Assembly: GCF_004010195.1 (NCBI RefSeq)
Contig: NC_057719.1
Location: 5,994,543 to 6,014,542, forward strand
Reading direction: 5' to 3'
Length of the DNA: 20,000 bases
Source of the DNA: Chiloscyllium plagiosum
Lineage: Eukaryota
Below are positions 1 through 20,000 of this stretch, one piece after another. The number at the start of each line of letters is the position of its first letter. The stretch's first letter is position 1. The notes beneath the pieces are model-generated. The model was not told the origin of the DNA. It saw nothing but the letters and a program-made list of their open reading frames with translations, and ran no database searches. The position numbers were made by a program, and so were the translations under genes.

Positions 1-286
1 TATCCAGTCTTCATGTATTCAAGCTGATTGGAGCGCCATGGAGAGTGAGTTAGTATTAGCAGTCGCAAGCAGAATGTTTTTAGTTTTGATTTTAGAAGTT
101 TAATATAGTTTATGCAGGATTTGAAATCAGACAGATAGTGCAACAGCCTTGTACAGTAGTGAAGATTCATTTTGAGAGGTCTAGAATTTAAGAGCAGAGA
201 TGTACTGCTGAGGCAGTATAAGGCTCTGGTCAGACAGCATTTGAAATGTTGTGAGCATTTTGGGCCCTATACCTAAGGAGGGATAT

Positions 287-509
287 TGGATTAGTGGTGC
301 TGGAAGAGCACAGCAGTTCAGGCAGCATCCAAGGAGCTTCGAAATCGACGTTTCGGGCAAAAGCCTTTCATCAGGAATAAAGGCAGTGAGCCTGGAGCGT
401 GGAGAGATAAGCTAGAGGAGGGTGGGGAGAAAGTGCATAGAGTACAATGGGTGAGTGGGGGAGGGGATGAAGGTGATAGGTCAGGGAGGAGAGGGTGGAG
501 TGGATAGGT
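287..509 (-). mobile_element. Short Penelope-like element terminus (pseudo-LTR fragment) with a 7-bp target-site duplication
   Basis: Highly similar to 18192-18384, the 3' end of a PLE that has a recognisable RT. Flanked by GGGATAT at 280-286 and 510-516. Confidence 0.85.
345..376 (-). ncRNA. Minimal type-I hammerhead ribozyme motif in PLE terminus
   Basis: The minus strand reads TC-CTGATGA-A-AGGC-TTTT-GCCC-GAAA-C-GTC-GA. This gives the CUGANGA and GAAA core, a stem II hairpin (A.C mismatch at its base), a GUC cleavage triplet and a 2-bp stem I. Confidence 0.7.
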
Positions 510-4477: not shown

Positions 4478-5283
4478 CCATTTCATTTTCTGCTCAGGGA
4501 CACTGCAACCTTCAGGGTTCCATAATAAATTCTATAATTTTAGGGCCTGAGAACCTTCTCCCATGTTCTTATCCTAAACCCCACACAGCAGTCCTTTTCG
4601 TCAAATGGACTGCTCTCATCGAACCAACCTGTTTTCACCCATTAATGGACCCTATTAGCAACATTTCATTCTCCCCAGCTCAACATTAACCATTCCTGTC
4701 TGCCCAACTGTTGTTCTCTCCCTTTGGGCTTCATGTTCACTTATTGTTTACTCCCAGCCCAGTCTTTCGCATAGTCATAGAGTCATAGAGACGTACAGCA
4801 TGGAAACAGGCCCTTTGGTCCAACTCGTCCATGCCGACCAGATATCCCAACCCAATCTTGTCCCACCTGCCAGCACCCGTCCATTTCATTTTCTGCTCAG
4901 GGACACTGCAACCTTCAGGGTTCCATAATAAATTCTATAATTTTAGGGCCTGAGAACCTTCTCCCATGTTCTTATCCTAAACCCCACACAGCAGTCCTTT
5001 TCGTCAAATGGACTGCTCTCATCGAACCAACCTGTTTTCACCCATTAATGGACCCTATTAGCAACATTTCATTCTCCCCAGCTCAACATTAACCATTCCT
5101 GTCTGCCCAACTGTTGTTCTCTCCCTTTGGGCTTCATGTTCACTTATTGTTTACTCCCAGCCCAGTCTTTCGCATAGTCATAGAGTCATAGAGATGTACA
5201 GCATGGAAACAGGCCCTTTGGTCCAACTCGTCCATGCCGACCAGATATCCCAACCCAATCTTGTCCCACCTGCCAGCACCCGT
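4478..5283. repeat. 403-bp near-perfect direct tandem duplication (4478-4880 and 4881-5283)
   Basis: Both units begin CCATTTCATTTTCTGCTCAGGG and end CAGCACCCGT. The only difference I noticed is C4792 versus T5195. Confidence 0.95.
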
Positions 5284-5646
5284 CCCATATCCCTCCATAC
5301 CCTCCCTATTCATTTACAGGGTTCAGAAAAGATTTACAAGGATATTGCCAGGGTTGGAGGATTTGAGCTATAGGGAGAGATTGAATAGGCTGGGGCTGTT
5401 TTCTCTGGAGCGTCAGAGTCTGAGGGGTGACCTTATAGAGGTTTATAAAATCATGAGGGGCATGGATAGGGTAATTAGATGACGTCTTTTCCCTGGGGTG
5501 GGGGAATCCAGAATTAGAGGGCATAGGTTTAGGGTGAGAGGGGAAATATATAAAAAAGACCTTCGGGGCAACTTTTTCACGCAGAGGGTGGAATGTGTAT
5601 GGAATGAGCTCCTAGAGGAAGTGGTGGAGGCTGGTACAATTGCATA
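5172..5646 (-). mobile_element. HER1/CR1-type LINE 3' end with an inverted 5' segment
   Basis: 5177-5316 is the antisense 3' UTR and tail (CATAGAGT repeats). 5318-5644 is sense-on-plus ORF2 C-terminus RVQKRFTRILPGLEDLSYRERLNRLGLFSLERQSLRGDLIEVYKIMRG. GCATA flanks both sides (5172-5176, 5642-5646). Confidence 0.85.
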
Positions 5647-8761: not shown

Positions 8762-8791
8762 TACTAAGCTCCATTTTAATTTACTTTCCAG
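8762..8791 (+). promoter_or_regulatory. Branch point, polypyrimidine tract and 3' splice site of the TTC7B exon
   Basis: TACTAAG at 8762-8768 resembles the YTNAY/TACTAAC branch consensus about 24 nt upstream of the exon. It is followed by a T/C-rich tract ending in CAG. Confidence 0.7.
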
Positions 8792-8994
8792 CTGAAGTAT
8801 ACATTGGAATGGGAAAGCCTACAGAGGCCACAGCATGCATCCAGGAGGCAGCTAACCTTTTCCCCACATCTCACAACGTATTGTTCATGCGTGGTCAAGT
8901 TGCAGAACTCCGAGGGAATATTGATGAAGCTAAGCGCTGGTATGAAGAGGCTTTGTCGATCAGTCCCACTCATGTCAAGACAATGCAAAGACTG
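8792..8994 (+). CDS. TTC7B: Internal coding exon of tetratricopeptide repeat protein 7B (PI4KA complex subunit); C-terminal TPR region, probably the penultimate exon
   Basis: Translates as (A)EVYIGMGKPTEATACIQEAANLFPTSHNVLFMRGQVAELRGNIDEAKRWYEEALSISPTHVKTMQRL, which closely matches my recollection of the vertebrate TTC7B C-terminal TPRs. The acceptor is ttactttccAG (AG at 8790-8791) and the donor is CTG|GTAAGT (GT at 8995-8996). Length 203 bp, phase 1 to phase 0. Confidence 0.93.
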
Positions 8995-17680: not shown

Positions 17681-18249
17681 AGAGATCTCAGTGTAGATTT
17701 GTGCTTTTTCTGGATAAAGCTCATAATACAGATGTAACTTGGCTTGAATGACATATTTGGAATTGGGCTGAATAGCAGTCCCGCTGTCCTTTTTTTAAAT
17801 TGGGGAAATCCAGAAGACCAGAGTGCAGAGCACCAAAAAGGTTGAAAAGAATAGGAGAGAAGATAAGGTATACCGAGACATAGTAGTTGTGGGAATTTAA
17901 ATTTGAGGTTTTAAGACTTGCAGGTCATAGGAGGAAAGGAAGACTGAAAGGAGACCGGGAGAATGGGCAGGTTGTCACATAACATGGGGAAAGGGGCTCT
18001 ACAATTTGGAAGGCCCAAGGATGCATAGGTCAAAATGGAATGAAGTGTGGTATCCAAACTCACTACTGAACTGCAGATCTCTACTATTTCTGTGGTTGCT
18101 CTGATGAATTTTGCACTCAGGACACATCTTACCTCTCAATATTTGTCTCTTGACCATGCACAGTTCTGGTCTCCATATTATGAAAGGATTTTGGATTAGT
18201 GGTGCTGGAAGGGCACAGCAGTTCAGGCAGCATCCGAGGAGCAGCAAAG

Positions 18250-18281
18250 TCGACGTTTTGGGCAAATGCCCTTCATCAGGA
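18250..18281 (-). ncRNA. Minimal type-I hammerhead ribozyme motif, core-mutated (G12 to A)
   Basis: The minus strand reads TC-CTGATGA-A-GGGC-ATTT-GCCC-AAAA-C-GTC-GA. Stem II is perfect but GAAA has become AAAA. Confidence 0.6.
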
Positions 18282-18384
18282 ATAAAGGCAGAGAGCCTGA
18301 AGGGTGGAGACATAAGCTAGAGGAGTGTGGGGGTGGGGAGAAAGTAGCATGGAGTACAATAGGTGAGTGGGGGAGGGGATGAAG

Positions 18385-18749
18385 NNNNNNNNNNNNNNNN
18401 NNNNNNNNNNNNNNNNNNNNNNNNNNNNNNNNNNNNNNNNNNNNNNNNNNNNNNNNNNNNNNNNNNNNNNNNNNNNNNNNNNNNNNNNNNNNNNNNNNNN
18501 NNNNNNNNNNNNNNNNNNNNNNNNNNNNNNNNNNNNNNNNNNNNNNNNNNNNNNNNNNNNNNNNNNNNNNNNNNNNNNNNNNNNNNNNNNNNNNNNNNNN
18601 NNNNNNNNNNNNNNNNNNNNNNNNNNNNNNNNNNNNNNNNNNNNNNNNNNNNNNNNNNNNNNNNNNNNNNNNNNNNNNNNNNNNNNNNNNNNNNNNNNNN
18701 NNNNNNNNNNNNNNNNNNNNNNNNNNNNNNNNNNNNNNNNNNNNNNNNN
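18385..18749. other. Assembly gap (365 N)
   Basis: Run of N characters. Confidence 1.
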
Positions 18750-19776
18750 GAGATGTGTTGGAGGGCATCTTTAACCACGTGGGAAGGGAAATTGCGGTCT
18801 CTAAAGAAGGAGGCCATCTGGTGTGTTCTGTGGTGGAACTGGTCCTCCTGGGAGCAGATGCGGCGGAGGCGGGGGAATTGGGAATACGGGATGGCATTTT
18901 TGGAGGAGGTCGGGTGCAAAGAGGTGTAATCCAAGTAGCTGTGGGAGTCGGTGGGTTTGTAAAAAATGTCAGTGTCAAGTCGGTCGTCATTAATGGAGAT
19001 GGAGAGGTCCAGGAAGGGGAGGGAGGTGTAAGACATGGTCCAGATAAATTTAAGGTCAGGGTGGAATGTGTTGGTGAATTGCTCAATCTCCTTGCGGGAG
19101 CATGAGGTGGCGCCAATGCAGTCATCAATGTAGCGGAGGAAGAGGTGGGGAGTGGTGCCGGTGTAATTACGGAAGATCGACTGTTCTACGTAGTCAACAA
19201 AGAGATAGGCATAGCTGGGGCCCATCGTGTGCCCATGGCTACCTCTTTGGTCTGGAGGAAGTGGGAGGATTCGTAGGAGAAATTAAGGGTGAGGACCAGT
19301 TCGGCCAAACGAATGAGTGTGTTGGTGAAAGGGTACTGTTGGGGACGTCGGGAGAGGAAAAAACGGAGGGCTTGGAGACCCTGGTCATGGCAGATGGAAG
19401 TTTAGAGGGATTGGATATCCATGGTGAAGATGAGGCGTTGGGGGTCGGGGAAACGGAGGTCTTGGAGGAGGTGGAGGGCGTGGGTGGTGTCTCGAACGTA
19501 TGTGGGGAGTTAGGGGGGAATGGACAGTGTCGAGGTAGGTAGAGATGAGTTCAGTGGGGCAGGAGCATGCTGAGACAATTGGTCGACCAGGGTGGTCAGG
19601 CTTGTGGATATTGGGAAGGAGGTAGAACCGGGCAGTGCGGGGTTCCCAGACTATGAGGTTGGAAGCTGTGGGTGGGAGATCTCCTGAGGTGATGAGGTTC
19701 TGTATGGTCTGGGAGATGACGGTTTGGTGATGGAGGGTGGGGTCATGGTCGAGGGGGCAGTAGGAAGAGGTGTCCT

Positions 19777-19841
19777 TGGCGTAGCGGTAGTGTGCTAGGC
19801 TCATAGCCCAGAGGTTGATGGATCGAAACCATCCTCCGCTG
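19777..19841 (+). pseudogene. Initiator tRNA-Met(CAT) pseudogene fragment, tRNA position 8 to the 3' end
   Basis: TGGCGTAGCGGTAGTGTGCTAGGCTCATAGCCCAGAGGTTGATGGATCGAAACCATCCTCCGCTG matches 56/65 positions of the vertebrate tRNAiMet sequence as I recall it. It has the CAT anticodon and the initiator-specific T-loop GATCGAAAC. The 5' acceptor strand (AGCAGAG) is absent and there is no T4 terminator just downstream. Confidence 0.85.
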
Positions 19842-20000
19842 TTGCGCAATGTCTCCTTGAGCAGCTTTCTTTCTGCTGTGTCTGCCACCACATCCGCCCC
19901 CACCAACGCCACTCACCTGCATTCTGCTGACACGCCCCCCGCACATATCCCACTGTCACCATTCCCGGCCCCCAGAACCCTGAGGGGAGCACCACCCCTG

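Follow-up and report, generated by a model that had tools for sequence, protein, structure and literature searches.

The window, by which we mean the whole 20,000-nt stretch of Chiloscyllium plagiosum DNA that was analyzed (G000:C10:5994543-6014542), contains an exon of TTC7B and, downstream of it, a composite insertion in the following intron (Table 1). This agrees with the initial annotation of the sequence, which had recognized the TTC7B intron and, in it, a Penelope-like element (PLE) adjoining a fragment of initiator tRNA (tRNA-iMet). From left to right, the insertion consists of one copy of a target-site duplication, an inverted PLE arm, a piece of pre-tRNA, a sense PLE arm and the second copy of the duplication; the tRNA accordingly faces the left arm head-to-head and adjoins the right arm head-to-tail. 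The region near 18190 had been regarded as the other end of the element; it is indeed the end of one arm, but the insertion extends ~1.26 kb past the window. Elsewhere in the window, positions 4767-5290 hold a near-perfect tandem duplication of ~410 nt that includes a repeat tail and is either genuine or an assembly artefact. Just to the right of the insertion, the minus strand carries a long, decayed LINE that retains pieces of its endonuclease and RT (L030 3614-6130).

Table 1. Features of the composite insertion and its surroundings, in window positions
Feature	Position	Strand	Remarks
TTC7B exon	8791..8994	+	Match E 1e-38; insertion in the following intron (context only)
Target-site duplication, left copy, 14 bp	18176..18189	+	Right copy 13/14 identical, at G000:C10:6015802-6015815 (L030 3303-3316), outside the window
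Left PLE arm	18190..19776	-	5'-truncated at 19776; 3' end without the ~35-nt tail; RT frameshifted
Minimal hammerhead core in the terminal repeat of the left arm	18252..18279	-	Motif read; predicted cut between 18252 and 18251
Assembly gap inside the left PLE arm	18386-18750		
Likely microhomology, 6 bases	19777..19782	+	tRNA positions 8-13 equal PLE sequence 5 nt beyond the break (intact copies aligned)
tRNA-iMet piece, positions 8-72	19777..19841	+	Divergent variant, common to array unit L003 and dispersed copy L002
3' trailer as in tRNA-iMet array genes	19842..19872	+	Ends at the first T-rich run
Right PLE arm, start, sense	19870..20000	+	Continues outside the window; after an assembly gap, ends in a full tail at G000:C10:6015801

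The minus-strand PLE coding sequence (DTSSYCPL...) was correctly described as stopping at 19776, where its reading frame starts. The left arm shows ~90% identity to other copies, and a first look with its RT piece returned 67,078 candidates. Intact PLE copies continue as PLE at the equivalent of 19776, and a loose-end consensus at this position was seen in four sequencing runs. The tRNA-iMet sequence begins at 19777 with position 8, as had been claimed, and 56 of its 65 nucleotides are identical to positions 8-72 of intact genes. Positions 8-63 of the Rfam tRNA model match 19777-19833 on the plus strand (26 bits, E 0.13, below the 29-bit cut-off), and ARAGORN called no tRNA. The initial annotation was also right that CCA is missing after the piece and that tRNA positions 1-7 are missing near 18190, where they are absent from both strands of 18001-18400. 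The sequence that follows, which it had likened to a pre-tRNA trailer of 35-40 nt, is the trailer of the array genes described below, but has a length of 31 nt. An m1G9 stop was considered as the cause of the end at position 8 and was dropped, because position 58 is read through and the trailer retained in this copy, and because the end is uncertain between positions 8 and 13 by microhomology.

From approximately 19870 onward, the plus strand is PLE in sense, with 111 of 131 nucleotides identical to another copy. The truncation of this right arm lies ~580 nt further 5' than that of the left arm: positions 19870-20000 align to the PLE copy L036 at 412-540, and the left arm breaks at L036 995. 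The two arms differ by 7% over 190 nt, which speaks against their origin in one event. The tail is present on the right arm only. At the right junction, tRNA and PLE have 2-3 T in common. The 6-base match at the left junction likely represents microhomology that joined two cDNAs, as judged from the aligned sequences.

As in a chimeric retrocopy, a single 14-bp duplication with one mismatch encloses both PLE arms together with the tRNA piece, and no duplication surrounds the tRNA alone. An empty target paralogue (L030 8246-8434), 90-95% identical to both flanks, lies ~5 kb further on in inverted orientation and contains the 14-bp repeat once, with neither PLE nor tRNA. In the sequencing data, a contig of run X15 bridges the junction between the left flank and the PLE by 31 letters, with 1 difference in 421, and a shorter piece of run X1 possibly covers this outer junction too. 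For the tRNA junctions (19776/19777 and 19872/19873), no bridging contig was present among the 32 of 15,290 pieces listed from four runs (X15, X3, X1, X2), which are unitigs that break at repeats; the tRNA cover in X15 is an array variant with a 3-nt deletion. The unique flank had no cover in the raw run X24, of which ~4% was read, or in X2. Because there are assembly gaps in both arms, the link from the tRNA to the right duplication rests on scaffolding. The tRNA/PLE junction at this locus is real in the assembly.

Copies of this PLE family have the RT and the C-terminal GIY-YIG endonuclease of an EN+ PLE. Pfam matched RVT_1 in L060 (E 3e-16) and GIY-YIG in L056 (E 9e-5), both above the cut-off and in separate copies; the window pieces show ~90% DNA identity to L056, and the window's own broken RT pieces had no Pfam match. 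The terminal repeat carries a minimal hammerhead core in both arms and the optional 30-40-nt tail, again as in EN+ PLEs, and the core was not scored by Rfam. This minimal type is described in PMC4209133, which states that in vivo evidence for metazoan PLE hammerheads is missing. Head-to-head arms without cargo are common in the family (many, uncounted, of the 30 loci viewed). A search for PLE copies that diverge no more than 7 nt from the hammerhead cut gave 370 matches; the 30 that were viewed and the 20 scanned with Rfam showed no captured RNA, and the Rfam hits were hairpins only.

The tRNA piece and its trailer form a unit of a tRNA-iMet gene array that is found on many small contigs and on C44, and whose units match one another from -150 to +260..420. 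The initial annotation had recommended a search for a source locus with the same trailer and variants, and the array unit L003 (G000:C53209) matches, with identity at 61 of 62 aligned bases; the dispersed copy L002 is identical at 62 of 65. Seven or eight of the nine differences from intact genes are common to L003 and L002, and therefore most of the divergence is older than the insertion. T3-type runs can end Pol III transcripts, and the trailer reaches the first T-run of the array unit. The piece thus shows the transcript boundaries of a chimeric retrocopy with a source-like unit elsewhere (L003). The array also contains degenerate units (L003, L014, L078, L079, L024, L025, L027), with SINE insertions, missing tRNA 5' ends and a tandem duplication of 123 nt.

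On chromosome-scale contigs, we examined all matches apart from two additional neighbours on C39 and C44 and, after leaving out true genes and array units (C3, C39, C44 and small contigs), obtained 19 dispersed pre-tRNA-iMet copies; match totals are lower bounds. All 19 begin within 8 nt before tRNA +1 or inside the tRNA, a count that is partly circular because "dispersed" was defined partly by a missing array spacer. The matches end at +98..115 in 10 copies, at +217..232 in five and elsewhere in four, and 15 of these ends are near one of the two T-runs of the array. The 3' partner is a SINE in 10 copies (L004, L005, L009, L013, L015, L072, L073, L087, L088, L089) and of LINE type in three (L006, L007, L022); these are presumably HE1-like SINEs, CR1 and Tx1. 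Two copies have no clear partner (L023, L094), and four have a PLE partner (the locus in the window, L095, L008 and L002).

In three of the 19 copies (the locus in the window, L095 and L008), one duplication encloses the tRNA and, head-to-head with it, an inverted PLE arm. L095 reproduces the three-part layout of the window locus, gap-free and in another PLE subfamily; its flanks carry a 14-nt exact repeat, 2 nt of which are perhaps PLE. In L008, a 12-bp duplication encloses an inverted 100-nt PLE arm and, in place of a second PLE arm, a whole pre-tRNA that directly abuts the duplication. L002 carries the tRNA variant of the window downstream of a sense PLE piece, with no clear duplication. 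Leaders of 5-6 nt are present in L002, L008 and L095, and the trailers of L008 and the window locus end at T-runs. Junction positions differ among all four, and no second copy of the tRNA-PLE junction in the window was found among at least 41 DNA matches and at least 38 pattern matches. At a rough 0.001 for each, estimated from 38 anchors in 205,580 bases (a crude PLE density of ~0.18 ends per kb), the chance of three inverted junctions in 19 copies is ~1e-6. The possibility of a recurrent PLE-tRNA association, raised by the initial annotation, is supported by three inverted cases and a fourth, L002, after a PLE piece. PLE-tRNA co-insertion is real and recurrent at low frequency, albeit in small numbers, and this kind of product is known from L1 and other LINEs.

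A pattern that places an A box after an inverted PLE end gave 22 matches, of which two are tRNA (L102, which is L008, and L100) and the others are PLE, SINE-like or chance; when 20 of the 22 were scanned with Rfam, L102 was the only match. L100 (G000:C2:116497119) is ambiguous, with an inverted PLE arm beside a tRNA-Lys 5' half that ends in the anticodon loop; there is a 10-nt repeat on the inner side and an imperfect one of 13 nt on the outer side. Several other arrangements were observed among the copies. The commonest partner of pre-tRNA-iMet and U6 (many loci in L125-L166) is one SINE family, to whose 5' end they are fused with no clear duplications. L007 1410-2410 (G000:C17:60565298) contains, in one direction, a tRNA-Glu-like piece with a short trailer, pre-tRNA-iMet and a LINE RT fragment, possibly through a double template switch, and L094 (G000:C21:16820546) contains a tRNA-iMet copy with its upstream LINE-like flank twice, in inverted order, within 400 nt. 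At L023, L126, L129, L134 and L140, several of them clustered on C21, tRNA-iMet or U6 follows the same A-rich motif in a shared repeat, which may be a site-specific LINE target or an array. Two further candidates were rejected: a tRNA-headed SINE or non-autonomous PLE family, because each PLE-linked case has its own junctions, and an LTR-type primer-binding site, because no CCA complement occurs at a fixed place across copies.

U6 forms the same layouts with PLEs, which indicates that capture is neither iMet-specific nor priming. In a U6 family search, for which all 46 loci (48 matches) were examined, U6 runs into a sense PLE at six loci, three of which (L143, L144, L154) have the inverted arm too. 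L144, L154, L168 and L170 each contain U6 and two arms with 13-14-bp duplications, and L159 has an inverted PLE arm and a U6 arm inside one duplication. Four of the six sense U6-PLE loci join exactly at the predicted hammerhead cut, and aimed patterns added three, giving seven (L127, L144, L154, L161, L168, L169, L170; for example, G000:C7:109202494 and C31:9507364-9507615). Each of the seven has five T and differing PLE variants, and the duplications are 13-14 bp in four and 8-10 bp in three, one of these being weak. Among 80 other PLE 3' anchors, one starts at the cut and one is doubtful. The U6-PLE junction is present on each of the two inverted arms of L144 and L154 and thus likely already existed at the RNA stage. 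U6 at the predicted cut likely reflects RtcB-type ligation after self-cleavage; a 3' end at a 5'-OH-yielding site, as in RtcB-ligated chimeras, was found only at these seven U6 loci and not at the window locus or L095. At a separate locus, L128 (G000:C17:47236055), U6 is directly followed by a full tRNA-Lys-like sequence.

A role of tRNA-iMet as a PLE primer, which the initial annotation had mentioned, did not hold, since the piece lacks CCA, its 3' end is buried in the trailer, the junctions vary, and U6 occurs in the same layouts. The locus in the window is a dead chimeric retrocopy in which the tRNA is cargo, not primer, and it is an inert intronic fossil with no sign of function. We consider it probable that it arose in one insertion event: each of the two cut strands would have served the enzyme as a primer, and on one strand it would have switched template from PLE RNA to a tRNA precursor. 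The GIY-YIG nuclease would cut both strands ~12-14 nt apart. The right-hand 3' end would prime at the tail start site of the PLE RNA, and the RT would stop in the N-terminal region, move onto an unprocessed Pol III pre-tRNA at its U-rich 3' end via 2-3 nt of T in common, and copy this RNA up to position 8-13. The left-hand 3' end would prime at the tail-less start site of the PLE RNA, and the two cDNA ends would be joined at the 6-nt microhomology with a loss of 5 nt. An anole PLE protein was reported to cut and extend both strands and to start at two sites that define the tail (PMC11167929), and one arm with and one without a tail, together with a 12-14-nt stagger, fit this description; the same paper calls later PLE integration steps unvalidated. 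Judging from L008 and L159, direct priming of a target end on cellular RNA may also occur. The capture of a pre-tRNA transcript by a PLE, one of the readings in the initial annotation, is supported in this form; however, a jump from the minus-strand arm, as then envisaged, cannot give the head-to-head orientation, and a second, sense arm is present.

Because only 2-3 bases are in common at the right junction, an RT jump is indistinguishable there from RNA ligation or repair capture. Ligation of a pre-tRNA to a cut PLE RNA might have preceded reverse transcription, much as RtcB joins U6 to L1 RNA, and this route is likely present here for U6, given the seven loci with a five-T U6 end at the predicted cut and the junctions in both arms of L144 and L154. 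However, the sense tRNA-PLE junctions (the window locus and L095) are away from the hammerhead cut and both have short shared bases, and a 2',3'-cyclic phosphate is not expected on a Pol III trailer. RtcB requires this group (PMC6789731), and we regard ligation as unlikely at the tRNA junctions. It is quite unlikely that host repair patched genomic array DNA, or the cDNA of another RT, into a gap between two PLE cDNAs. The left junction does appear repair-like (microhomology and a 5-nt loss), the array is multi-copy, and SINE- or LINE-linked copies are the majority (13/19), which indicates that other RTs do copy pre-tRNA-iMet RNA; nevertheless, the PLE-linked copies have transcript-like ends, and the pre-tRNA of L008 lies directly against the duplication, as a primed template would.

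Sequential events are very unlikely, whether the tRNA pseudogene came first and a PLE inserted into it or next to it, or an inverted PLE came first and later received a tRNA copy at its centre. PLE ends are common at the density given above, and L100 with its own 10-nt repeat may be such a case; against this stand the single duplication around all parts, with none around the tRNA alone, the lack of tRNA positions 1-7 at the far end, the empty paralogue without tRNA and the three independent cases. The insertion of a PLE into an existing tRNA pseudogene, proposed by the initial annotation as its other reading, is accordingly not supported, as one duplication surrounds both and the paralogue has neither. 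Extremely unlikely is a misjoining of repeat contigs: gaps lie in both arms and the tRNA junctions are unbridged among the pieces listed, but a matching duplication, microhomology and the gap-free L095 and L008 are not expected from misjoins, and the left outer junction is bridged in X15.

Single insertion with priming on both strands has relatives among known chimeras. Law and Burns (2026, PMC13174262) explained tRNA/LINE-1 chimeric insertions by twin priming, and, as here, a tRNA and a retroelement share one duplication (9-19 bp there), mostly in opposite orientation. The partner here, however, is a PLE, and Penelope has no mention in the available text of that paper; moreover, unlike the tRNA halves described there, our copies are unprocessed pre-tRNA with a leader or trailer, and a second PLE arm closes the insertion. 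Similarly, the snRNA/LINE chimeras of Doucet et al. (2015, PMC4476161) include sense and inverted junctions of small RNA and retroelement within one duplication; they were attributed to template switching and twin priming and involve L1, L2, RTE, one CR1 and SINEs. In contrast to those cases, both junction types occur within one insertion here, and PLEs are not mentioned in the accessible part of that text. For the U6-at-cut loci, the U6/L1 RtcB chimeras of Moldovan et al. (2019, PMC6789731) provide a model; unlike them, the tRNA junction in the window is away from the cut and is likely not a ligation product. The inverted-pLTR Penelope insertions of Arkhipova et al. (2013, PMC3846280) share head-to-head arms, an optional tail on one arm and unrelated sequence between pLTRs, and have 8-10-bp duplications; the available text, which does not mention tRNA, reads the head-to-head arms as self-priming on an antisense template. 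Full-text literature searches found no PLE-tRNA or PLE-U6 chimeras, although subscription papers, Repbase notes and supplements may hold such, and a term search of bioRxiv 10.64898/2026.07.22.740005 gave no match for tRNA, snRNA or RtcB.

Arms that are split or replaced by foreign RNA are hard to derive from fold-back on an antisense PLE template as in PMC3846280, and, in contrast to that reading, two priming events account better for arms parted or replaced by Pol III RNA. Insertions that have a tRNA precursor or U6 between the arms, or as a whole arm, in one duplication thus provide a natural test that favours two priming events. We lean towards the broader view that PLEs routinely integrate by priming both target strands with independent templates, and that their telomerase-like RT can use a pLTR-less Pol III RNA as one of these. 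The co-insertions show trans use of non-PLE RNA and extend the formation of chimeric retrocopies from LINEs to a third retroelement class. If the broader view is correct, the record of PLE-tRNA and PLE-U6 insertions would settle whether the classic inverted PLE structure comes from twin priming or from antisense self-priming, and, together with the U6-at-cut junctions, would make PLEs a source of small-RNA retrocopies and of possible SINE ancestors.
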